Made by a program: the position numbers and the translations under genes. Below are positions 10,765-25,716 of a stretch of 25,803 bases of DNA, piece by piece. Source of the DNA: Escherichia phage CBA6; sequence record KM389300.1; one strand, written 5' to 3'. The notes beneath the pieces were generated by a model that was not told the origin of the DNA, did no database searches, and saw only the letters and a program-made list of their open reading frames with translations. Numbering within the stretch: the first letter of the stretch is position 1; each line of letters begins with the position of its first letter.

Positions 10765-11070
10765 GTGCAAGAACAAAATAAAGTTGTAGAAAGCCCTGAC
10801 AAGCGTTCCGGTGACAGTGATATGGATGGTATCATTATCCATGTAAACAACTTCATCCGTAATCAGAATCCACCAACTTCCGTTGGCGCAGCGTTGGAAT
10901 TAAAACGAGTTCTGATTGAAAACGGTATGGCACCTGATGACGACGAAATTTTCTATAACTTTGATGACCAGTATAAAGTGAAGTTTGTTGAGAATGGTCA
11001 TCCGCAAGTTGCCGTGTTTTGGGCACCTTGGTTGGGTGGAGTGAGTTGGCGCATTGAGGATGCTGCATAA
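10765..11070 (+). CDS. hypothetical protein (101 aa)
   Basis: GTG start at 10765 with SD TAGGAG (10753..10758); stop overlaps the kinase start (TAATG at 11068..11072). Confidence 0.5.
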   Translation: MQEQNKVVESPDKRSGDSDMDGIIIHVNNFIRNQNPPTSVGAALELKRVLIENGMAPDDDEIFYNFDDQYKVKFVENGHPQVAVFWAPWLGGVSWRIEDAA

Positions 11071-11984
11071 TGGCAAAGATCATCGTAATCAAAGGAACCA
11101 GCGGCACGGGTAAAGGCACTCGTGTCGTACAGTTCATCGAGTGGCTCCGCACTAAGCTGAAGCCGACTGAATTGTCGTACACTGTTGGGGATAAGACGCG
11201 CTCCTTCGGCCTGAAATTTGAAGAGCTGAAGTTAATCTTCGTCGGCCAATACACAGTGTCCAATAAATCCGGCCTGGCGTCTTGGACCTCTATGGACGCC
11301 ATTCATGCTGCCACAGGCTCTGGGGATATTGCTCGCGACCTCGTCAAGGGTTGGCTGGCTCAGGGATATACCCTGGTGTGTGAGGGCGAACCTCTGATGC
11401 TGTCGGACAAGTGGCGTCCTGAATGGATGTTCAATAACTATCCGATTGATTCTTTGGCGCTGCTGTACTTTGCATATCCAGACCGCTATCAGTACGATGC
11501 CCGCATCCGTGGACGCTCTGGTAAAGAAGCGGGGGATTCCGGCTGGTCGCGCAACGAATCTTACTCCAAGGAGTTCGAGAAGTCCAAGGCTGAAATGCTG
11601 GCGCTTGGCTGGAATGTTGCCGTGGATGATTACAGTGGGCAAGACGTTTTGTACCACCAAACGGCTACGAACACCCAAGAATTCAAGACTGGGAATGATA
11701 GCGAATTGGCTATGTTGCCGTTCGACGCCCCGTTGTGGGTGGTGGGTAATGCTATCTATCATCAGCTTGGCACAGTTTGCCGCGCTAACAATCTGATGTC
11801 GAAAGACTTCTACGGCTATTGCGAAACCAATCCGATGACGCGTGAAGTCGGCGGTCAGGATCCTTTGGCTCACAGAGTGCCTGAGAAGCCGCAGAAGGCA
11901 TCCAAAACTAAAAACAAGGCCGTCGCCAAGGAAGAACCAAAGACCTCATCCGTGTCCCTTCTGGGGCTAATGCGTAAGGTGTAG
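11070..11984 (+). CDS. P-loop kinase, NMP-kinase-like Walker A; candidate nucleic-acid (5-hydroxymethyl-pyrimidine DNA) kinase
   Basis: N-terminal Walker A GTSGTGKGT (the GxxGxGKGT form typical of adenylate/NMP kinases) at residues 9-17; 304 aa; C-terminal tail KTSSVSLLGLMRKV matches the polymerase tail. Confidence 0.7.
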   Translation: MAKIIVIKGTSGTGKGTRVVQFIEWLRTKLKPTELSYTVGDKTRSFGLKFEELKLIFVGQYTVSNKSGLASWTSMDAIHAATGSGDIARDLVKGWLAQGYTLVCEGEPLMLSDKWRPEWMFNNYPIDSLALLYFAYPDRYQYDARIRGRSGKEAGDSGWSRNESYSKEFEKSKAEMLALGWNVAVDDYSGQDVLYHQTATNTQEFKTGNDSELAMLPFDAPLWVVGNAIYHQLGTVCRANNLMSKDFYGYCETNPMTREVGGQDPLAHRVPEKPQKASKTKNKAVAKEEPKTSSVSLLGLMRKV

Positions 11985-12192: not shown

Positions 12193-12543
12193 ATGAAAAT
12201 TCTTATTCCACGCAATGCCATTGCTATTGCTGTTGACTATCGTGGCGATGCCAATATGATTAACGCTGTCCGATATTATCCGGAACAGAATAAAATCATT
12301 CCCCAATTCCAGCTGAACACCAATCCATCTTCTAAAGATTTCGGTGCATGGCGGCAAATTGGGTTGGCACGGACTCAGGTTAATGCCCAGCATTATATTT
12401 CTGAAAAAACGAAAACCGCCAAGCAAATCTGGGTAGTATCCAATGACCGTCGGTTCCTTCCAATTTGGTCTTTGGGCCAGCCCGTTTTAAACCCTGAAGA
12501 TATCCAACTCGAAGCCGAGGTGAAGGATGACGCATCTATCTAA
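12193..12543 (+). CDS. hypothetical protein (116 aa)
   Basis: ATG at 12193 with SD AGGA (12183..12186); the ORF track start at 12169 is TTG. Confidence 0.5.
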   Translation: MKILIPRNAIAIAVDYRGDANMINAVRYYPEQNKIIPQFQLNTNPSSKDFGAWRQIGLARTQVNAQHYISEKTKTAKQIWVVSNDRRFLPIWSLGQPVLNPEDIQLEAEVKDDASI

Positions 12544-13762
12544 AATGCCGACAGGTTATACGCCTCCGGCTGAATGGAAGTACCCAATTGATTTGTCAAT
12601 CGATTATCGTAAGCCAGAGAATCGGATGTATCTGCTCAAAGCATGGGTGGAGGCGCTGTCGTATACGGAAGAACACAACCAACAAGTTCGTCTGATGGAT
12701 TATGCGATTGAAGTCACTGAAGGCATTACGCAGCTTGAGAAGATCGAGCGCAAGATCTGGATGGCGTTCCTTTGGGGCTGTTGTTATAATGGGATTGGCC
12801 CATGGACGATTTATAGTGAGTTTCCTGTACCGCCTCAGTCACCACAAGAGTTCAAGCGATTCTGTGATTGGTATAACCTGAACTTCGAGCGTATGCGATT
12901 CGATACTGATTGCCGCTATCGCAAATCGAAGATGATCCCGTGTGTTCAGTCCTACATTGATTGGCTGGCTGGTCGTACTCAGATGGATGCTTTCCGTCCG
13001 TTGTTGGAGACTAAACTGCAAAGTGATCAATTCGTTAAGCTATGGGACACGGCTATGGGGTGGAAATACTTCGGTCGCCTGAGCGCCTGGAACTTCCTGG
13101 AAGCCCTGAACATGGTATTCGGCAACATGTATCAGATCGACGTCCCTGGGTTCATGTTGCGTGACCGTGATGGTAGTGAGTCCAACCGCAACGGCGCGGC
13201 ATTCTTGTCAAACCGTGACGACTGGGTGACCAAGCACGGAAAGAAAAAGATCAACGGCTGTCCTATCACCGATGAAGAATGCGACATCCTTGAGGCTGAT
13301 CTTGAACAGGCATTCAAAGATTGTGTCGCCGAGTTTGGTCACATCACGTTCATCAATCGTTTGAACTTTGAGACTTCCGGCGCTTGTTGGCTTAAGAAAT
13401 TCTTCCGTCTGAAAAACACTCGTTACATCGGGTGGGATGCCGAGCGTACTTGGGATGAGATCGACTACATGGAACGCATCTGGCCTGAGTACTCCTGTAA
13501 GGCATTATGGGAAGCCCGTTCCCTCTGGCTACCAGATACCCTGTTATGCGAAAAAGCTCCTGCAGGGCACGTTCCTGGCGTCCAGAAGTGGAAGATGCCT
13601 GTGTTCTTTGAGACGGGTGTTCCTCTACATATATGGCACCTGCAGCAGGGTACGCGTTGGGAACCATCTGAGGTTTACACTAATCTGAAAATGCCCGTCC
13701 GGAAGATAGATGACAATCCGAAGTCGACCAGTGTAAACCTCATGTCTTTGTTGAAACGATGA
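12527..13762 (+). CDS. hypothetical Trp-rich enzyme (411 aa); candidate DNA base-modifying transferase carrying the polymerase-like C-terminal tail
   Basis: ATG at 12527 with SD GAGGTG (alternative in-frame ATG at 12545); no motif I can name; C-terminal tail KSTSVNLMSLLKR matches the polymerase and kinase tails; two genes downstream of the kinase. Confidence 0.6.
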   Translation: MTHLSKMPTGYTPPAEWKYPIDLSIDYRKPENRMYLLKAWVEALSYTEEHNQQVRLMDYAIEVTEGITQLEKIERKIWMAFLWGCCYNGIGPWTIYSEFPVPPQSPQEFKRFCDWYNLNFERMRFDTDCRYRKSKMIPCVQSYIDWLAGRTQMDAFRPLLETKLQSDQFVKLWDTAMGWKYFGRLSAWNFLEALNMVFGNMYQIDVPGFMLRDRDGSESNRNGAAFLSNRDDWVTKHGKKKINGCPITDEECDILEADLEQAFKDCVAEFGHITFINRLNFETSGACWLKKFFRLKNTRYIGWDAERTWDEIDYMERIWPEYSCKALWEARSLWLPDTLLCEKAPAGHVPGVQKWKMPVFFETGVPLHIWHLQQGTRWEPSEVYTNLKMPVRKIDDNPKSTSVNLMSLLKR

Positions 13763-13770
13763 TATAAATA
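13763..13770 (+). promoter_or_regulatory. T4 late-type promoter box TATAAATA
   Basis: Exact TATAAATA at 13763..13770, about 30 nt upstream of the ATG at 13801; the only exact copy I found in the window. Confidence 0.5.
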
Positions 13771-13800: not shown

Positions 13801-13968
13801 ATGTTACAAGATCTGTTGGTGTATGCGCTCCCAGGCGTGGTTGTTGGTTTCATTGCTGGCGCTCTGGTTTTTCGTAAACACGCGCAAGACGGTGAAGCCA
13901 TCGTCCAGAAAGGTAAAGAGATTCTGGACCAAATTGAAGCCAAGCTGGAAGAGCTGAAGAAAAAGTAA
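13801..13968 (+). CDS. small single-pass membrane protein (55 aa; below the ORF-track size cutoff)
   Basis: ATG at 13801 with SD GTGAGGA (13786..13792); TM segment LLVYALPGVVVGFIAGALVF; charged C-terminal helix; followed by a strong terminator. Confidence 0.45.
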   Translation: MLQDLLVYALPGVVVGFIAGALVFRKHAQDGEAIVQKGKEILDQIEAKLEELKKK

Positions 13969-13996
13969 TCTGACTGCGATTGCGTTCTTCAATAAA

Positions 13997-14034
13997 GGGG
14001 AATGGGTTATTATTAGCCCGTTCCCCTTTCTTTT
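13997..14034 (+). terminator. intrinsic terminator
   Basis: 10-bp stem GGGGAATGGG (13997..14006) / CCCGTTCCCC (14017..14026) with one G-U pair, then TTTCTTTT; preceded by the conserved 18-mer CGTTCTTCAATAAAGGGG (13983..14000). Confidence 0.75.
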
Positions 14035-14049
14035 ACAAGGAAATACATC

Positions 14050-14304
14050 ATGGCAATGCAACGAATTGAAGATATGGACTCCCTCGATATTGAATCTATG
14101 GTATCGGTGATTCTGGAAGAAGATCATAAAAATCCAACAAAATACCAGATGACTGAGTTAGGCGATGCTGATGCTCTTTGGAATATACTGAACGGCAACA
14201 AAAATTCCGGCAAGAGTGCGTTTGGTCTACTACATGGCGAGGGGCAAGGCGGTTTCCGTCGCGGTGAACTGAATATTATCTGTGCCGGAGGGATTACGAG
14301 ATGA
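14050..14304 (+). CDS. hypothetical protein (84 aa)
   Basis: ATG at 14050 with SD AAGGAAA (14037..14043); stop overlaps the next start (ATGA). Confidence 0.5.
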   Translation: MAMQRIEDMDSLDIESMVSVILEEDHKNPTKYQMTELGDADALWNILNGNKNSGKSAFGLLHGEGQGGFRRGELNIICAGGITR

Positions 14305-14687
14305 TGCGCCCCGAATACAAACAATATTTGTACGATCTGTTCATGAAAGAAACAGACGGCGTGTTACATCCTAAGAAAGCGACTATTGTTAAATTGCATT
14401 CTGAAGGTGATTTGTCTATTGCATATATTCGGAAAGAACTCGATTTGATGGGTATTGAATATGAAGACCATATCACTGATACACGTGCTTTAAAAAGAGC
14501 GACAGCAATCGTTCTTCATACCGTTGCAACAATTATGCATCGCCACCATGTTTCTTTTGACGATGCAATGACTCCACAGTATCATGAAGAACGTTGGGAT
14601 CTGTTGTTGAAAAATGGAGCTGAATCAGATCATAAAAATCAACTTCTTGGTATGACGAAGGAACAACTCGTGGATGGTGTGTTATGA
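14301..14687 (+). CDS. hypothetical protein (128 aa)
   Basis: ATG at 14301 with SD GGAGGG (14287..14292); stop overlaps the next start. Confidence 0.55.
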   Translation: MMRPEYKQYLYDLFMKETDGVLHPKKATIVKLHSEGDLSIAYIRKELDLMGIEYEDHITDTRALKRATAIVLHTVATIMHRHHVSFDDAMTPQYHEERWDLLLKNGAESDHKNQLLGMTKEQLVDGVL

Positions 14688-15793
14688 TTTACCTTCTGTT
14701 TGTGGTCCCTATTATTTTAGCCATATTGTTCGTGGTTTACCATCGCAAAACCCATGAACCAAAAGAAACGCTAATTGCTACTGCGATAGTGGTTGTATTA
14801 TCCTGTCTTATCCAGGCGGGAGCATACGCTGCATTTTCCCTGGGTAGTTCGGGAGATGTTGAAATTTTGAATGGGTACGTTACTGACAAGCAACGAAATA
14901 AGGTGGGTTGTAGCCATTCTTATGAATGTATGTGCTATTACACAACTTCTTGCTCTGGTTCAGGAAATAACCGATCTTGTACACAAACGCGTCATTGCAG
15001 CACGTGCTATGAGCACTCTTATGACGTTGATTGGGACGTATTAACAACCGTCGGGGATCTGAGCATTGACCGTATTGATCGTCAGGGTACTACAGAGCCT
15101 CCGCGTTGGGCGCAAGTTAAAATCGGAGAACCTGCAGCTCGTGAACATGCATATATGAACTATGTTCTGGGGAACAAGGATTCTTTATTCTCCAAATCTG
15201 ACCAACAATTCGCTGAGAAGTTCAAAGACCATATCCCGTCATATCCAAGGGTGTATGATTATTATCGGGTGACTCGTGTTCTGAATATGTCAGGGATGGA
15301 TATTCCCGTTGATTATTGGAATGATTATCTGAACAACACTTTGAAAACATTGGGGGCATCACGTCAGGTCAATATCGTGTGGGTAGTGACTTCTGGCCAG
15401 CCTGTGGAATATTTTCAGGGGCTGCTATATGCATGGTCTGGTGGTAAAAAGAACGATGTCATTGTGGTTACTGACATATCGAAGGATATGAAAATCAATT
15501 GGGGTAAATCCACGTCATTTGCTGATGGGATGAATAACATGGAACTCCATTCCCGAAACGGTCTTTCATTGACTGGCAAACCCATGGGGATATCAGTATT
15601 CCAAGAAGTTGCAGTCAATATCAGCAAAGGATATAACCGCGTTGAAATGAAGGAAATGGAGTATCTGAAATGGCGTGACCTCAAGACATGGGAAGTGATT
15701 ATCGTCGTTTTATTAGGTTGTGTTCCGTTTACCGCAATTTTCATATTAGGCCATATGCAGTACAATGGTCGCACTTACAAACGTTTGTTTTAA
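14684..15793 (+). CDS. membrane protein with Cys-rich domain (369 aa)
   Basis: Two N-terminal TM helices and one C-terminal TM helix (WEVIIVVLLGCVPFTAIFILG); Cys-rich stretch CSHSYECMCYYTTSCSGSGNNRSCTQTRHCSTCYEHSYD between them; directly upstream of the LemA-like gene. Confidence 0.6.
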   Translation: MIYLLFVVPIILAILFVVYHRKTHEPKETLIATAIVVVLSCLIQAGAYAAFSLGSSGDVEILNGYVTDKQRNKVGCSHSYECMCYYTTSCSGSGNNRSCTQTRHCSTCYEHSYDVDWDVLTTVGDLSIDRIDRQGTTEPPRWAQVKIGEPAAREHAYMNYVLGNKDSLFSKSDQQFAEKFKDHIPSYPRVYDYYRVTRVLNMSGMDIPVDYWNDYLNNTLKTLGASRQVNIVWVVTSGQPVEYFQGLLYAWSGGKKNDVIVVTDISKDMKINWGKSTSFADGMNNMELHSRNGLSLTGKPMGISVFQEVAVNISKGYNRVEMKEMEYLKWRDLKTWEVIIVVLLGCVPFTAIFILGHMQYNGRTYKRLF

Positions 15794-15808
15794 CAAGAGG
15801 AAGTAAAG

Positions 15809-16378
15809 ATGTCGCAGCGTAAAGGTATTTCAATTGGTTGGATCATCGGTTTGGCGATTCTGGCTTTTGTTGTAATCGGTGTTGGTAGTTTCGTCAGTTA
15901 TTTCAATGATTTCAATCGTATTGAACAGCAAGTCAAAAAGTTCAATAAAGATTCTGAAAACCATCTGAGCAACTATACAAACAAAGTACAAGAGACGGCT
16001 CAGATACCTGGCCTGTACAAAGACGGTCTGAAAGAAGTGATCAAAGATACTTTCCAGGGTCGTTATGGTGCTGATGGTTCAAAGGCGGTTATGCAATGGA
16101 TCCAGGAACAGAACATCCAGTTTGATTCAAGCCTGTACAAAGAAATTCAGGTGGTCATCAGTTCAGGACGTGATGAATTCCGTATCAGCCAGACAAAGAA
16201 ATTGGACGCGTGTGCTATCTATGAAACCAAACTCGGCCAGTTCCCTGGATCTGTCATTGCTGGCATCTTTGGATACCCTCGCATCGATCTTGACAAGACC
16301 TGTCAGGTGGTGAGCGATACCCGTACCCAGGCCGCGTTTGACTCTGGGGTTCAGAACCCAATTAATTTCAAAGGTTAG
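15809..16378 (+). CDS. LemA-family membrane protein (189 aa)
   Basis: ATG at 15809 with SD AAGAGGAAG (15795..15803); N-terminal TM helix GWIIGLAILAFVVIGVGSFV; LemA-like C-terminal motif QFPGSVIAGIFGYP (compare FPTNxVAxxFGF). Confidence 0.6.
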   Translation: MSQRKGISIGWIIGLAILAFVVIGVGSFVSYFNDFNRIEQQVKKFNKDSENHLSNYTNKVQETAQIPGLYKDGLKEVIKDTFQGRYGADGSKAVMQWIQEQNIQFDSSLYKEIQVVISSGRDEFRISQTKKLDACAIYETKLGQFPGSVIAGIFGYPRIDLDKTCQVVSDTRTQAAFDSGVQNPINFKG

Positions 16379-16381
16379 ACC

Positions 16382-16807
16382 ATGAGCGTGAAACTTACTG
16401 AATCTTTGACTCTGGAACAGCAACAGGCTTTGTTGGATGAAGTGGTGATCTCTGCTATCAAACAGGGGATCATCCGTGACGACACGTTGCTTACCCGTCC
16501 TGAGATGATCCATCATCTGGTGGTGTGCCTTGGTGAGGCGAATAATCCTCGTAAGAAGATTCGCATGTTCAAAGGCGGGGTGATTTATCCAAATGGCCGT
16601 TTCGCCTTCCTGGAGCCAGTGCTGAAGTCTGATGGTGCCCCAAATAACGTTGGTGATCATATCAAAACTTCAGTTCCGGTAACTCCATACACTGAAGGAG
16701 TTGATGAATTGTCTTGGTTTGAGACAATTAACACCATCTACATCATGTCGCCGGATGGCAAACCCGTCCAGGATCTGCGCGGTGATAAAGTAGAATCCAA
16801 AGACTAA
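16382..16807 (+). CDS. hypothetical protein (141 aa)
   Basis: ATG at 16382, 3 nt after the upstream stop; followed by a terminator. Confidence 0.55.
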   Translation: MSVKLTESLTLEQQQALLDEVVISAIKQGIIRDDTLLTRPEMIHHLVVCLGEANNPRKKIRMFKGGVIYPNGRFAFLEPVLKSDGAPNNVGDHIKTSVPVTPYTEGVDELSWFETINTIYIMSPDGKPVQDLRGDKVESKD

Positions 16808-16822
16808 TCGTTCTTCAATAAA

Positions 16823-16856
16823 GGGGGATAGGGTATTATTGCTCTATCCTCTTTTT
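16823..16856 (+). terminator. intrinsic terminator
   Basis: Stem around GGATAG (16826..16831) / CTATCC (16844..16849), extended by G-U pairs, then TTTTT (16852..16856); preceded by the same 18-mer CGTTCTTCAATAAAGGGG (16809..16826) as at 13983. Confidence 0.7.
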
Positions 16857-16868
16857 ATGGAATGTAAT

Positions 16869-18412: not shown

Positions 18413-18436
18413 AAGCCTCCTTTTGGAGGCTTTTTC
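18413..18436 (+). terminator. intrinsic terminator
   Basis: Stem AAGCCTCC (18413..18420) / GGAGGCTT (18425..18432), loop TTTT, T-tract to 18436. Confidence 0.75.
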
Positions 18437-18512: not shown

Positions 18513-21254
18513 ATGAAAATGCGCAAGTCTGAGCATTTCGTGCGCTCTTCTTCCACTATCGTCGGACAGACATTTAATGTCAAGATGACGGATAAATTAT
18601 TTGAAACATTATTTTCAAGTCTCTACAAATATAAAGAGGCCGCATCTTTGCGTGAGACGTTATGTAACGGTATAGACTCGCATAATATGCGTGATCGCCA
18701 ACAGCGTTGGTTGCCGTCCCATTATGCCCCTCTTACCCCTATGCCCCAAAGATACAGCAAGCATCTTGCTCCCAAAGGGACGCCCGTTGTGGTCCATTTA
18801 CCTGATGTTATGGAACCATGGTTGGAAATCAAGGATTATGGGATTGGCCTTCCGTTAGAAATGATTATCGGGGAACCTATCGCAGCGCGGGAAGATGAAG
18901 TGCTTGTCGAAGGCAACATTGTTGTGAAGGAAGATGAAATCCCTGACAGCACTGCTGTTATTGGGACGCCTGGTTATTACAATGGGGTGTTGGTATTCCG
19001 CGCTGAGGATGGCGAGATCATCCGCGGACCTGGTTTGTACACCACACTCTTCCACAGCACCAAAGAGGACGACGACGGGCAGATCGGCGCGTTCGGGCTG
19101 GGTTCTAAATCCCCATTTGCAGTGTCGGACTCATTTACTGTAGAAAGTCGTTATGAAGGTAAACTGTATCGCTTCCTTATGTATCTGAATGCGGACAGGA
19201 TTCCTACTGTGGACCTGATCACCAAGGATTTGGATACCCGTGATCCGAAACCAGAAGACACTGATGAGTTCAATGGTCTGACTGTTAAAGTGCCTGTAAA
19301 GAATCAGCGATTTACCGCATTTGAACAAGAACTGGTCCGTCTGGGTCGAGTTATGCGCCCATCAATGCGCCCGAAGGTTGAAAATGCCAGTTATTCTTTC
19401 CGCTGGCAGGACATCAATTTTGAAAACCGTGTGGGCAACACGTATATTCAGCCGAAGTCTGATTCTGATAATACCCACTATGCCGTTATGGGCGGGGTTT
19501 CTTATCCGATAGATCTTGAGCAATTGGATTCTGAAATACGTTCGGTGCTGGAGAAATTCCCGAGTTCCTATACATTCTTTGAACTTGGAGAATTGAATGT
19601 TCCTCCATCACGTGAAGACTTGTCATATGACGAGTTCACCCGTGAAAGCCTGAACCGAGTGTTCAAATATGTGGCTGACAATATTATGCAGGCGAAGATG
19701 TATGAACTTCGCCAGGCCGAATCTATGGGTCCTCTTATGCTTTATATGAAGAAGGCTCAATTGACCGATATGTTCGGTAGTGGTTTCCGTAAATTAGTGG
19801 AGCGAGAATTTCCTGCAGATAACCGTTTCTACAAAGGCACGTTCCGTTATATCGGAGCGCCGGACGTCGTGCGCGATTACTCTGTGGATGCACCTTTCCG
19901 GTCTATTGGTAGTCCTTACGAAATTGAAGTACACGACGACGGTGTAGTACACGACAGCATTTATGTGAACTCTGTCGGAAATTGGTTGAAATCTAAATCA
20001 AAAATTGCTGTTATTATTGATAACTCGAATCGTGCTCGAAACCTGAAGATACAAACAGCACGCAATAACTTCAATGTCGTTATCGTCGTCAAGCCGAATG
20101 AAAATTATTTCAGTAATCGGAATCAGCTGGCGGCACATAAAGAATCATTCACCAACCATGAGGAATTGAAGTCTTATTTTGAATCATGGATCGGTGTACA
20201 AGAAACAACACCGGACTACCTGGTCTTTGCCGATAAACTGATCGAGGTTTTTGGCGATTTATTCAATCCGGATGAAGTTTATTTCATGCATGAAATGGAA
20301 TATGTTCGCCCGACCGTTGAAAAAGATCCTGGGATGTTTAGTTTCCATTACAATTCATTTAACTTCGACAGCGTTTATGAATTGGATGGAAAAACCGTTT
20401 CAGATATTATTGATTCAGGCAAAAAGATCGTATATATCGAAGTATCTGGCCGAGAAGGTATCCATAAAATTCATGGTAATACCTTACGGCAATCCACGGC
20501 TGGACATTTGCGTGAAGCGATGGAAAGAACGAAGTTCGGCGAGAATGGAAACGAAAACATGTTTGATTTGCTGGGAGCGCATCCAACAATCGTTCTTGCG
20601 CGTCGTAAATCTGTTCCGATGATGAAGAAATTCCCAGAAGTATTCATCCCCATTGACGCAGTGTTTGATATGTTGCTTGAGCATTATAAAGATGAATTTC
20701 AGGCGCTTGAATCTAAGAAACTCCTGAAACTTCGCAAGGGCATAAACATCATGTCTCATCGCATTGATTATGGTGCCAAGCTGTTGATTGATTCCCATGG
20801 AGAAGTTACGGATGGCTATGCTCATCATCAACACAGGGCAAAAGCAATCATCGGTTATGCGAAACAACAAATCACTGAAGAAGAATGGAAGGTTGTTCGT
20901 ATGCTGGCCAAACGAAACCCGTCTGGATCGGGGTATGGTTATTTCCGCAAGGCGGTTGAGGAATTACATTATCGTATAGAAATGCCTTTCTCAACTACGA
21001 GATTTTTCCGCGCCTGTAACCAGTTAACTCAAGTTGTTGATTTATTGAATGAAAAATTAACTGCTGAAGGATTTGATGAGATAAAGGTCACTAGCACTAT
21101 ATCTCAAAAGCAAAAGGCCAAAAACCGATACCGAGTTGAATGTCATCGTTTGGTGAAATTCATGATGTCAAAATATCAGCCAACGGCGCATAATGCGATT
21201 GAAGATGCCACTAGATTTGTGAAGGCTATTTCAAAACGTATTCTCGGGGCATAA
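18513..21254 (+). CDS. rIIA: rIIA protein (913 aa)
   Basis: Clear resemblance to T4 rIIA as I recall it: N-terminal ATPase-like block FNVKMTDKLFETLFSSLYKYKEAASLRETLCNGIDSHNM, GAFGLGSKSPFAVSDSFTV, GGVSYPIDLEQLD, LNVPPSREDLSYDEFTRESLNRV. Confidence 0.9.
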   Translation: MKMRKSEHFVRSSSTIVGQTFNVKMTDKLFETLFSSLYKYKEAASLRETLCNGIDSHNMRDRQQRWLPSHYAPLTPMPQRYSKHLAPKGTPVVVHLPDVMEPWLEIKDYGIGLPLEMIIGEPIAAREDEVLVEGNIVVKEDEIPDSTAVIGTPGYYNGVLVFRAEDGEIIRGPGLYTTLFHSTKEDDDGQIGAFGLGSKSPFAVSDSFTVESRYEGKLYRFLMYLNADRIPTVDLITKDLDTRDPKPEDTDEFNGLTVKVPVKNQRFTAFEQELVRLGRVMRPSMRPKVENASYSFRWQDINFENRVGNTYIQPKSDSDNTHYAVMGGVSYPIDLEQLDSEIRSVLEKFPSSYTFFELGELNVPPSREDLSYDEFTRESLNRVFKYVADNIMQAKMYELRQAESMGPLMLYMKKAQLTDMFGSGFRKLVEREFPADNRFYKGTFRYIGAPDVVRDYSVDAPFRSIGSPYEIEVHDDGVVHDSIYVNSVGNWLKSKSKIAVIIDNSNRARNLKIQTARNNFNVVIVVKPNENYFSNRNQLAAHKESFTNHEELKSYFESWIGVQETTPDYLVFADKLIEVFGDLFNPDEVYFMHEMEYVRPTVEKDPGMFSFHYNSFNFDSVYELDGKTVSDIIDSGKKIVYIEVSGREGIHKIHGNTLRQSTAGHLREAMERTKFGENGNENMFDLLGAHPTIVLARRKSVPMMKKFPEVFIPIDAVFDMLLEHYKDEFQALESKKLLKLRKGINIMSHRIDYGAKLLIDSHGEVTDGYAHHQHRAKAIIGYAKQQITEEEWKVVRMLAKRNPSGSGYGYFRKAVEELHYRIEMPFSTTRFFRACNQLTQVVDLLNEKLTAEGFDEIKVTSTISQKQKAKNRYRVECHRLVKFMMSKYQPTAHNAIEDATRFVKAISKRILGA

Positions 21255-21261
21255 TAGCCCC
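21246..21261 (+). promoter_or_regulatory. hairpin spanning the rIIA stop codon
   Basis: GGGGC (21246..21250) / GCCCC (21257..21261) with loop ATAATA containing the rIIA stop TAA (21252..21254); no T-tract; 25 nt before the rIIB start. Confidence 0.35.
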
Positions 21262-21286
21262 ATTACCCCACAGTGAGAACTACAAG

Positions 21287-22870
21287 ATGAATGCTATAGA
21301 AAAACGTATTCTCAAGCTGTTGAATGAGAACAGAAGTCAAAGTTCAATAGCCAGTGAATTGGGCGTACCGCGCTCAATGATACAACGCGTGTCGGATAAA
21401 GAACTGGGAGTGGATCCGGCTTCGATTAAGTCTCTGACCACTGAACAGATTCAAGAAATACAAACCAAGAGCAGCAAAGGTGAAAGCAATTCTTCTCTGG
21501 CATCAGTTTATGGTGTCAGTGCCAAAACAATTGCCCGTGCCCTGATGGTTCGTATCATCAAAGAATCTAATAACGTGGTCGTGATTTCGCCAATTAAAGA
21601 ATTGACTGAAGAAGGCAAAATCCCCGACACCTATGAAGTTCTGGAAGGTTCGGTGTCTGTCGATTCTGAAGGCGAAGAATGGTATGTTGGCCGTTTCCTG
21701 GAAAACCAAACAGTGTTTATCTGTATGCGTTATGATAGCTCTGCTGCTATTCAGGCCAAACTTTTCAGAAGCGAAGAACTGAAACCGTTAGAAACTCGGT
21801 CAAGCCGCTTCAATGAAGAAAATATTTCGCCGTTAGCAGAACTGGCTACTGCATTGGTTGATGGCGTGGTTAAAGTCAATGATGGTGTGGAAATCAGCGT
21901 ACAGCATGACGGTGAAACATATCCGATGCGCGGTTCCCTTGATGCCCGTCGGCGCGTGGGTTACTTTGATGCAATTTTAGGCCGTACACTTCGTCTGGCA
22001 TTGTCATCCGTATTATTCGTGGTCAAGACGGTTGCAGTTGTTGAAGAAACAGGCGACAAGCAAACTCAGAATTCATTTAATGAAAAAGAACTGTCTGTGT
22101 TCCTGAACGAACACCAGATCATGATTTTGCCGGAAAGTATCGTGATTGTGGTCGATGGTAAACCGGAAACGATCACAACGAGCCACCAGGCGTATGACCG
22201 TATTGTTGAAGCGATTAAAAATCGTGACGTCAAAACAGCTTACACTCTGATGAAACCGCGTGAAGCCATCAAACAATTCACTACAGGCATGGTTGATCTT
22301 TCAGACAATCGTGTTCGCTGGGGTGGCTATGATATCACCGGAACTTCCGTTGCCAAACGCATTTTGGCTTTGGCATTAAAAGGCGATTATCCGAACTTGG
22401 AACGCTTGGGCCGTTTCCTTGATAAGATGTTCCAAAACCCGAGCGCTGCTCTGGTTCAGTCTGGTCGGATCTATGAATTCATGGCATACTCAGACATTGA
22501 GATTCATGAAGACGGCGACATTATTCTATACAAATCCGTTCGCGGAAATTATATGGATAAGCGCACAGGTAAAGTCAGCAACGCACCTGGCACTATCGTC
22601 CGGATGGCTCGCTCATTCGTGAACGATAACAACAAAGACCTGTGCTCCTATGGTCTTCACGTTTGTTCTCTGGCGTATCTGAAACAATGTTTCGGTAGCC
22701 TGGGCCAGCGGGTTGTGCGTTGTAAACTGAACCCGAAAGACATCGTGTCTATCACTGATGATTACGGTTCTAGTAAAATCCGTTGCTGTGAATATCTCGT
22801 GATGGATGACTATACCACGGAATACAACCGCCAACATAAATCTATTGACGTTGACGGTCTGTACAAGTAA
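21287..22870 (+). CDS. rIIB: rIIB protein (527 aa)
   Basis: N-terminal block SLTTEQIQEIQTKSSKGESNSSLASVYGVSAKTIARAL and C-terminal block LCSYGLHVCSLAYLKQCFGSLGQRVVRCKLNPKDIVSITDDYGSSKIRCCEYLVMDDYTTEY resemble T4 rIIB; immediately downstream of rIIA. Confidence 0.88.
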   Translation: MNAIEKRILKLLNENRSQSSIASELGVPRSMIQRVSDKELGVDPASIKSLTTEQIQEIQTKSSKGESNSSLASVYGVSAKTIARALMVRIIKESNNVVVISPIKELTEEGKIPDTYEVLEGSVSVDSEGEEWYVGRFLENQTVFICMRYDSSAAIQAKLFRSEELKPLETRSSRFNEENISPLAELATALVDGVVKVNDGVEISVQHDGETYPMRGSLDARRRVGYFDAILGRTLRLALSSVLFVVKTVAVVEETGDKQTQNSFNEKELSVFLNEHQIMILPESIVIVVDGKPETITTSHQAYDRIVEAIKNRDVKTAYTLMKPREAIKQFTTGMVDLSDNRVRWGGYDITGTSVAKRILALALKGDYPNLERLGRFLDKMFQNPSAALVQSGRIYEFMAYSDIEIHEDGDIILYKSVRGNYMDKRTGKVSNAPGTIVRMARSFVNDNNKDLCSYGLHVCSLAYLKQCFGSLGQRVVRCKLNPKDIVSITDDYGSSKIRCCEYLVMDDYTTEYNRQHKSIDVDGLYK

Positions 22871-25137: not shown

Positions 25138-25716
25138 ATGAAATCTTTAGTTAAACGAAAAGTAGAAGTATCCCTTAATGCGCATATTGAAATGCTACAA
25201 CAATTGGTTCTAGATGCGTATGAAATTCAAAAAGATCGCCGGATTCGTCACGACCTTGATCCCGCAGACAGTGGGAGCATGCTCTACTATCGAATGCTTC
25301 GCCAGACTGGTCACACTGCGGCGTTAAAGAAACTCCTTTCTGAAAAATTCCAAATTGAAAATGACATCGACGTATTCGGTGTATTTCACACTGCGGCGTT
25401 AAAGAAACTCCTTTCTGAAAAATTCCAAATTGAAAATGACATCGACGTATTCGGTGTATTTCACACTGCTCGTGAACGTGATACGTTTTTCACTCAATCG
25501 AAAAATGTAACCACAGGGGAGCAGTATGAAAAATTTGATCGAAAAGAGAAAACGTCGACCATGGCCAATTTTATGGGAACCAAAATCGACAAGGCCAATA
25601 TCATCGTGTTTTCAGATACTCTGCATGATGCTAAGCGCCTTTCCGCTGCCCATCAAATGTTAAAAGATAATCGCAGCTGCTTTACAAATTTGACTTTAGT
25701 AGTGTTTCTGGGCTAG
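25138..25716 (+). CDS. hypothetical protein (192 aa) containing a perfect 25-aa tandem duplication
   Basis: ATG at 25138 with SD GAGG (25124..25127); internal repeat HTAALKKLLSEKFQIENDIDVFGVF x2 encoded by identical 75-bp units. Confidence 0.6.
   Translation: MKSLVKRKVEVSLNAHIEMLQQLVLDAYEIQKDRRIRHDLDPADSGSMLYYRMLRQTGHTAALKKLLSEKFQIENDIDVFGVFHTAALKKLLSEKFQIENDIDVFGVFHTARERDTFFTQSKNVTTGEQYEKFDRKEKTSTMANFMGTKIDKANIIVFSDTLHDAKRLSAAHQMLKDNRSCFTNLTLVVFLG
25312..25461 (+). repeat. perfect 75-bp direct tandem duplication (2 copies), in frame within a CDS
   Basis: 25312..25386 and 25387..25461 are identical base for base; each copy begins CACACTGC, and the same 8-mer follows the second copy at 25462. 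Confidence 0.9.

Follow-up and report, generated by a model that had tools for sequence, protein, structure and literature searches.

A Divergent LemA-Like Protein and a TPM-Fold Membrane Protein Form a Conserved Two-Gene Cassette in Escherichia Phage CBA6 and Other Large Phages

The subject of this study is a pair of adjacent genes, here called A and B, in a stretch of 25,803 nucleotides from Escherichia phage CBA6 (sequence record KM389300.1), the whole of which is referred to below as the window. Gene A (14684..15793, + strand) encodes a membrane protein of 369 amino acids (aa) that carries a TPM-fold domain, and gene B (15809..16378, + strand) encodes a membrane protein of 189 aa which on profile comparison is a remote relative of the bacterial LemA proteins. 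The two genes are obligately paired and distributed phage-wide, and the pair is the viral counterpart of the bacterial LemA-TPM operon. By analogy with that operon the two products may form a complex in the inner membrane and serve there to maintain or remodel the cell envelope during infection; this is the reading preferred here, and it is held tentatively, at somewhat less than an even chance.

Genes A and B

Both open reading frames (ORFs) are found exactly where the original prediction, a reading of the letters alone, had placed them. The 3-kb stretch around the pair is 99.7% identical to Salmonella phage Vi01, and the window belongs to a lytic, ViI-like Kuttervirus (Ackermannviridae), in which A and B are homologous to Vi01_203 and Vi01_204, respectively. 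Since A matches PHROG 2087 (E 4e-166) and B matches PHROG 1383 (E 2e-85), and since more than 496 homologues of A occur in the protein collection and the B family comprises 1397 cluster representatives (50% identity), they are real conserved genes and not chance ORFs.

Protein B and the LemA Superfamily

Protein B has the layout of LemA, namely a helical domain of about 150 aa behind a single N-terminal transmembrane (TM) helix; by hydropathy its one TM-like segment covers residues 4–35. The C-terminal stretch on which the original prediction had in part rested the LemA likeness, QFPGSVIAGIFGYP, lies at residues 144–157, and the motif FPGSVIAGIFGYP at residues 145–157. The F-P-x4-A-x3-G-F/Y motif of LemA is present in the window protein, whose C-terminal motif FPGSVIAGIFGY is nearly identical to FPGSLIAGMTGF of Neobacillus LemA. 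Among 215 phage relatives of B the G-(Y/F)-P element is retained in 185 and the leading FP in 47.

Profile comparisons point the same way and bear out the proposed LemA-like character. A set of 25 bona fide LemA proteins was aligned, and comparison of this alignment with the phage B family by hhalign gave a probability of 96.6% and an E value of 5e-10 over 154 columns. When the B-family profile was compared with all PDB sequences, the sole match was LemA 2ETD (E 0.008), and this match is independent of the TM helix because it spans B residues 36–163. Reciprocal searches with hidden Markov models (HMMs) gave about 39 bits for the phage B model on the true LemA proteins of Thermotoga and Neobacillus and 22.4 bits for the LemA model on the window protein; the latter model detected 78 of 216 phage B relatives at E≤1e-3. 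The Pfam model PF04011 was matched by four of 36 B relatives, all below threshold (best E 0.0016), and no other family is matched by more members of this set than LemA. On these comparisons B is considered a divergent member of the LemA superfamily that lies outside PF04011 as now delimited.

The AlphaFold2 (AF2) model of B is all-helical and contains a long helical hairpin; its mid-part is uncertain (predicted local distance difference test score, pLDDT, 50–60), and a fold search with it retrieved generic helical bundles only. A direct scan of B with NCBIfam provided no meaningful match. A PADLOC match of B to LeoBC (E 2e-5, 21.9 bits) covers residues 9–114, that is, the TM segment and the first helix, and most likely reflects composition.

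Protein A and Its TPM-Fold Domain

For protein A hydropathy indicates three TM segments (residues ~1–20, 30–52, and 337–357) and seven cysteines are packed into residues 76–114, in agreement with the two N-terminal helices, one C-terminal helix, and Cys-packed loop that had been described from the letters. The AF2 model, built on 36 relatives, has a mean pLDDT of 86 and helices that match the TM positions, with a beta-rich part at residues ~57–158 and an alpha/beta part at ~199–316, followed by TM3. The layout across 14684..15793 (+ strand) is thus TM1-TM2, a Cys/His-rich beta domain that is predicted to be periplasmic, the TPM-fold domain, TM3, and a short basic tail.

The TPM-fold domain (residues ~185–320; 15236..15643, + strand) is an alpha/beta/alpha sandwich of the kind found in TLP18.3, Psb32, and MOLO-1 and holds the invariant motif W-x-G-G-K-K-N-D. 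It is followed by TM3 as in the bacterial partners of LemA, which are built as signal peptide-TPM-TM. The W-x-G-G-K-K-N-D strand resembles the G-x-x-K-E-N-N-G-V-L-L strand of those partners by eye, a likeness that no tool aligned. In the Pfam scan the window protein gave no match to PF04536 (gathering threshold 22.1 bits), and ten of 36 A relatives matched this model, all below threshold (best E 1.8e-4, 15–18 bits). More generally, the protein is not recognized by Pfam, NCBIfam, or PADLOC, in which no defence-system match was obtained, and its PHROG match is to its own family, PHROG 2087. The invariant residues GGKKND, DYY, W117, and R141 of the pair are shared by myoviruses, siphoviruses, and jumbo phages.

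The beta domain (residues ~56–160; 14849..15163, + strand) is modelled with long hairpins, its strands covering residues 57–74, 80–91, 98–108, 114–121, 124–128, and 150–158. It carries the conserved motif C-x-H-S-Y-x-C-x-C...C...C...C-x2-C-Y-E-H...D-x-D-W, which includes the seven cysteines at positions 76, 82, 84, 90, 99, 105, and 108; two more cysteines of A are within TM2 and TM3. In the A family C76 and C82 are conserved to 99% and H78, C108, and H111 to 93%. Neither the family libraries nor a comparison of the A profile with PDB sequences provided a match for this domain; the one PDB match of the A profile, a Cys-rich toxin, was at noise level.

At residues ~88–92 of protein A, YYTTSCSGSG of the window stands against YYTLSALGSG of the Vi01 reference, in which Cys90, otherwise conserved, is missing. 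The 2010 record seems to contain here either a sequencing error or a local frameshift that is compensated.

Membrane Topology and Cysteine Covariation

The basic segments of the two proteins are HRKTHEPKE in the TM1-TM2 loop of A, RTYKRLF in the tail of A, and MSQRKG at the N-terminus of B, so that by the positive-inside rule the soluble parts of both proteins are predicted to be periplasmic. The cysteines vary in a concerted manner: in 206 full-length phage B proteins the equivalents of C135 and C165 occur together in 80 and are jointly missing in 126, a single one being found in none, while in A the residues C84 and C105 are lost as a pair, C90 and C99 are lost as a pair, and the GAP32-like subgroup has lost H78, C108, and H111 jointly. 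Such covariation would be expected of one disulfide in B (C135-C165) and two in A (C84-C105 and C90-C99), and it may also point to a metal or active site of Cys and His residues. It therefore supports the placing of the soluble domains in the periplasm, and the two lines are taken as evidence for a periplasmic location of these domains in both A and B.

The Pair as a Unit and Its Bacterial Counterpart

Among 80 viral contigs with a relative of A (down to 34% identity), a relative of B lies immediately downstream on the same strand in 79, and the sole exception ends at the contig edge. The pair is therefore syntenic in related genomes, a point on which the original prediction had staked itself together with the profile support for LemA, which hhalign, the PDB profile search, and the reciprocal HMMs provide. 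Of 31 loci in bacterial genome assemblies, 26 carry both genes, one of them in the bacterial-type order; this locus, L086, is on a metagenome-assembled genome (MAG) contig binned as Rickettsia typhi, has the LemA-like gene upstream of the TPM-like gene, and is the only clear order exception among about 105 pair-bearing loci. Clustering of all neighbouring ORFs revealed no third conserved partner gene beyond Ackermannviridae. One representative of 553 aa (P0222) is an apparent A-B fusion, either a real ORF or a gene-calling artefact. The order of its TM segments fits the proposed topology, and a fusion would require A to end, and B to begin, on the same, cytoplasmic, side.

LemA proteins had been said to be usually paired with a second membrane protein, and this holds in a specific sense, since A carries the TPM-fold domain that is the canonical neighbour of bacterial lemA. 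The closest known system is the bacterial operon of LemA (PF04011/COG1704) and TPM (PF04536/COG1512), for example, Thermotoga TM0961 (PDB 2ETD) and the gene downstream of it. In two genera, Thermotoga and Neobacillus, lemA directly precedes an overlapping TPM gene, and the TPM partner is arranged as signal peptide-TPM-TM-Gly-rich tail and is thus extracytoplasmic. On this ground the phage pair is the counterpart of the bacterial operon, with inverted gene order and as a very divergent phage-specific version. Common to both are adjacent, co-oriented genes with overlapping or nearly abutting coding regions; one product with an N-terminal TM helix and a helical domain of ~150 aa ending in FPxxxxAxxxG(F/Y); another with an extracytoplasmic TPM-fold domain, a TM helix, and a short tail; and the location, predicted in the phage, of both soluble domains outside the cytoplasmic membrane. 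The phage version differs in that the TPM gene comes first in nearly all loci, both proteins are below the Pfam thresholds, and both would be stabilized by disulfides that the bacterial examples lack; A has two N-terminal TM helices in place of a signal peptide, an inserted Cys/His-rich beta domain of ~100 aa without a match, and no Gly-rich tail.

Less close likenesses are found in other systems. MamQ of magnetotactic bacteria, a LemA-family protein with a single N-terminal TM helix, is needed for membrane remodelling (PMC3905215), but acts with other Mam proteins and has no TPM partner, and it is likened to B by description only. The YdjG/YdjH proteins of B. subtilis (zinc-ribbon + TPM; the pspA-ydjGHI membrane-stress operon) couple a TPM protein to a Cys-rich partner (PMC11237479), whereas their partner system is PspA/SPFH without LemA, and the zinc-ribbon partner is likened to the phage beta domain without shown homology.

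Distribution and Origin

By tblastn, A was detected in at least 486 phage records. Its carriers include Ackermannviridae, T4-like Aeromonas and Citrobacter phages, T5-like Vibrio phages, Vibrio phage ICP1, Acinetobacter Saclayvirus, and the jumbo phages GAP32, CBB, RaK2-like, RAY, Atu_ph07, and Lu11; T5-like Pectobacterium and Providencia phages are among the matches of the B family. All genomes among the tblastn matches listed are about 94 kb or larger, with the exception of one 14-kb partial record, and the named hosts among these matches belong to Gram-negative genera only, which fits a periplasmic location of the soluble domains.

The suggestion that the pair had been borrowed from the host is not supported by the bacterial data. 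No close bacterial homologues were found, and the A family is represented by 31 loci in 185,579 species genomes, mostly MAG bins with two isolate genomes; hence the module is an old lineage circulating among phages and not a recent host capture. One of the two isolate genomes with the pair is that of Achromobacter anxifer LMG 26857, where the pair lies on a 487 kb contig flanked by genes for a full-length RecA, a YqaJ-like recombinase, and an MscS-like protein; this locus is probably a large prophage or another mobile element. In the GAP32 and CBB jumbo phages a TelA-like "toxic ion resistance" gene and a putative metallopeptidase gene precede the pair (locus L122; CBB 248797-257879), the TelA-like gene near the CBB pair being a second gene of the envelope-stress type there.

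Genomic Context and Transcription

The pair lies within a five-gene block (14050..16807, + strand; homologues of Vi01_201-205) in which start and stop codons overlap or abut across the five genes, which suggests translational coupling. The other three genes of the block (84, 128, and 141 aa) match PHROGs 5099, 5047, and 4236 with function-unknown labels and, according to the neighbour clustering, are kept in Ackermannviridae only.

The five-gene operon is bracketed by two copies of a repeated element. The upstream copy (13983..14035, + strand) consists of the 5' arm CGTTCTTCAATAAAGGGG, a 16-bp hairpin (13994-14029), and a T run, and folds with -27.3 kcal/mol (z -5.1); the downstream copy (16809..16862, + strand) directly follows the block, has the same 5' arm CGTTCTTCAATAAAGGGG, and folds with -26.2 kcal/mol (z -6.1). 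The first 32 nt of the copies are 91% identical, and their 3' arms differ while the full 16-bp stem is kept in both. Both copies look like intrinsic terminators and may function as promoters too. The element can be likened to the PeSL promoter cassettes of T4-type phages.

A late promoter region upstream of the pair had been proposed, and one T4-late-like TATAAATA does occur at 13763-13770, directly after the stop codon of the preceding transferase gene, as the only one in the window. It is followed at a distance of 31 nt by a gene for a single-TM protein of 55 aa (13801-13968; PHROG 3879, function-unknown label). The 16-bp terminator hairpin, however, lies between TATAAATA and the operon that holds the pair, and with the operon bracketed in this way late transcription of the pair is not established. 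Moreover, the pair is located in early/middle regions elsewhere. In the window its neighbourhood is between the DNA polymerase and transferase genes on one side and rIIA/rIIB on the other, and in other phages it stands amid genes for ribonucleotide reductase, thymidylate synthase, denA, RNA ligase, and pseT and many small genes; this context of early/middle type, neither structural nor lytic, is met in T4-like, T5-like, Saclayvirus, and jumbo phages and in ICP1. No Kuttervirus transcriptome was found in the literature, and the expression timing of the pair is read from genomic context only.

The transferase gene (12527-13762) encodes a 411-aa amino acid:DNA transferase (ADDT; PF18724, E 3e-58) and is preceded by a guanylate-kinase-like gene (11070-11984); both belong to the genes by which ViI-like phages hypermodify thymidine. 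At 18513-22870, about 2 kb downstream from the pair, are the homologues of rIIA (913 aa) and rIIB (527 aa), which are preceded by a terminator-like site (18413-18432); both products are membrane-associated and act in conflict with other genetic elements. Farther on, positions 25311-25460 form a perfect tandem duplication of 75 nt in two copies with 100% identity.

Proposed Role and Alternatives

The functions suggested in the original prediction, namely envelope remodelling, superinfection exclusion, and lysis control, are all plausible. In the preferred reading, A and B would together make up a phage-encoded complex of the inner membrane, each as one of its two subunits, and this complex would derive from the LemA-TPM module of bacteria. 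Protein A would insert with its N-terminus out, so that its two basic segments, the TM1-TM2 loop and the C-terminal tail, are cytoplasmic and about 280 residues, comprising the Cys/His-rich beta domain and the TPM domain, are in the periplasm; B would insert with its N-terminus in and expose its LemA-like helical domain to the periplasm, and disulfides would stabilize both periplasmic parts. The complex would be made during infection, probably without becoming a virion component, and would work at the periplasmic face of the cytoplasmic membrane in the upkeep or remodelling of the host envelope, aiding assembly or acting as a "membrane chaperone", the kind of role that has been put forward for TPM domains, and shaping membranes as in the case of MamQ. 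As a possible effect, the cell would stay energized and whole while a large phage completes its long replication cycle.

This proposal draws on what is described for the bacterial families. MamQ is required for magnetosome membrane formation (PMC3905215), which is the sole LemA-family phenotype found in the literature. TPM domains have been proposed to help put together complexes linked to the membrane and are associated with PspA systems (PMC12419801 and PMC11237479), and in Flavobacterium lemA and a TPM gene are induced by membrane stress (PMC13236525).

Several points weigh against it. The role is argued by analogy, and the bacterial LemA-TPM pair is itself without an assigned function; the literature provided neither an experiment on any member of the phage pair nor a paper that describes a LemA or TPM pair in phages. 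Protein B fails the gathering threshold of the Pfam LemA model (PF04011), the window protein giving no match at E≤0.1, and A has no sequence-level match to the bacterial TPM partner, an hhalign comparison with one such partner having aligned the TM segment only. T4 and T5 are absent among the tblastn matches listed and the matches per host genus are far below those expected for the T4 and T5 groups, and because of this the module looks dispensable for large phages in general. Finally, B homologues are labelled "virion structural protein" in several records (CBA120, phiAS5, Vibrio phi 3, RAY, and CBB).

The main rival is superinfection exclusion or a block of entry, in which an early inner-membrane complex would stop the DNA of a later phage from crossing the periplasm and inner membrane or protect the peptidoglycan, as with T4 Imm and Sp; this is unlikely, if the best placed of the alternatives. 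The periplasm-facing soluble domains predicted for two proteins anchored in the inner membrane, the position of the pair within early-type gene regions in many phages and, in the window, near rIIA/rIIB, which are also membrane-associated conflict genes, and the accessory and patchy nature of the cassette, typical of competition genes, all suit such a function. The T4 exclusion proteins Imm and Sp, like the RI antiholin, are inner-membrane proteins with periplasm-facing parts made during infection, as is proposed for A and B; no sequence or fold relation to them was detected, however, and they are small and confined to a single lineage. Exclusion proteins in general are usually small, fast-evolving, and lineage-specific, whereas the pair keeps many invariant residues (those of the GGKKND and DYY motifs, W117, and R141) across phages with different injection machines and descends from a housekeeping-type bacterial module.

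Somewhat less probable again is a part in lysis control, by which the pair would act on the lysis machinery or its timing, for instance as an antiholin-like periplasmic sensor or a holin/spanin accessory. The idea is invited by the gene label "host lysis protein" of Vi01_203, by the membrane-anchored, periplasmic architecture, by the modelled helical hairpin of B, which is loosely i-spanin-like, and by Citrobacter phage Ci1, where the pair lies ~2.7 kb upstream of pseT; in T4 the corresponding region upstream of pseT holds spanin genes. Yet the Vi01 label stands beside the product name "conserved uncharacterised protein" with no supporting note, and it is not supported for A, for which holin, endolysin, and spanin families gave no significant match in Pfam, PHROG, or NCBIfam and which has no lysis genes as neighbours; among relatives there are two noise-level holin matches in TM regions. 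No inspected locus has the pair adjoining an annotated lysin, and Vi01-like phages have Rz-like and i-spanin genes annotated elsewhere (PMC10892097).

A periplasmic enzyme is improbable. Here H78/C108/H111 together with KKND and DYY would form a catalytic or metal site for the modification of lipid, peptidoglycan, or a lipopolysaccharide precursor, or for phosphatase activity, in keeping with the extreme conservation of polar residues, with the joint loss of H78, C108, and H111 in the GAP32-like subgroup, and with the phosphatase or ATPase activity reported for some TPM proteins (PMC13456599). The same subgroup, however, keeps the pair without these three residues, no known enzyme family is matched, the TPM phosphatase claim is disputed (PMC12419801), and AscF, a TPM-fold protein, binds neither metal nor nucleotide (PMC13456599).

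That B, perhaps with A, is packaged in or attached to the particle is very improbable: in its favour are the name of PHROG 1383, "virion structural protein", and the same label, also used by RefSeq, on the B homologues mentioned above, for which no primary evidence was traced, and against it are the N-terminal TM anchor of B, its LemA homology and obligate membrane-protein partner, the location of both genes outside structural modules, the frequent contamination of virion preparations with traces of membrane proteins (compare the low-count proteins in PMC10892097), and the absence of the B homologue CBB_344 from the mass-spectrometry table of the CBB paper, which marks its label as a homology transfer. 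Both this label and "host lysis protein" are unsupported here, and such labels are unreliable, since the B homologue of Pectobacterium phage DU_PP_V is even named "major capsid protein".

Significance

Few bacterial membrane proteins without an assigned function are as widespread as LemA and TPM proteins. A divergent LemA-TPM pair is now recognized in at least 486 phages, including ICP1, CBA120/ViI, and T4-like, T5-like, and jumbo phages, where it is strictly kept as a cassette of two genes, and the misleading labels of host lysis, virion structural, and major capsid protein can be replaced by a testable description.

A bolder and rather unlikely extension of the proposed role is that the pair is an unrecognized "envelope module", near-universal among the large virulent phages that infect Gram-negative hosts, and forms a disulfide-stabilized periplasmic LemA-TPM complex whose Cys/His centre would sense or alter the membrane or the periplasm. 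If so, it might sustain the proton-motive force, prevent abortive infection that is triggered at the membrane, or set the timing of lysis, and CBA120 in E. coli and ICP1 in V. cholerae would offer the first handle on LemA-TPM function anywhere.

The strict conservation of the cassette suggests that the module meets a need common to large phages of diderm hosts, and the pair provides a compact viral system for the study of LemA-TPM phenotypes, topology, and interaction partners.

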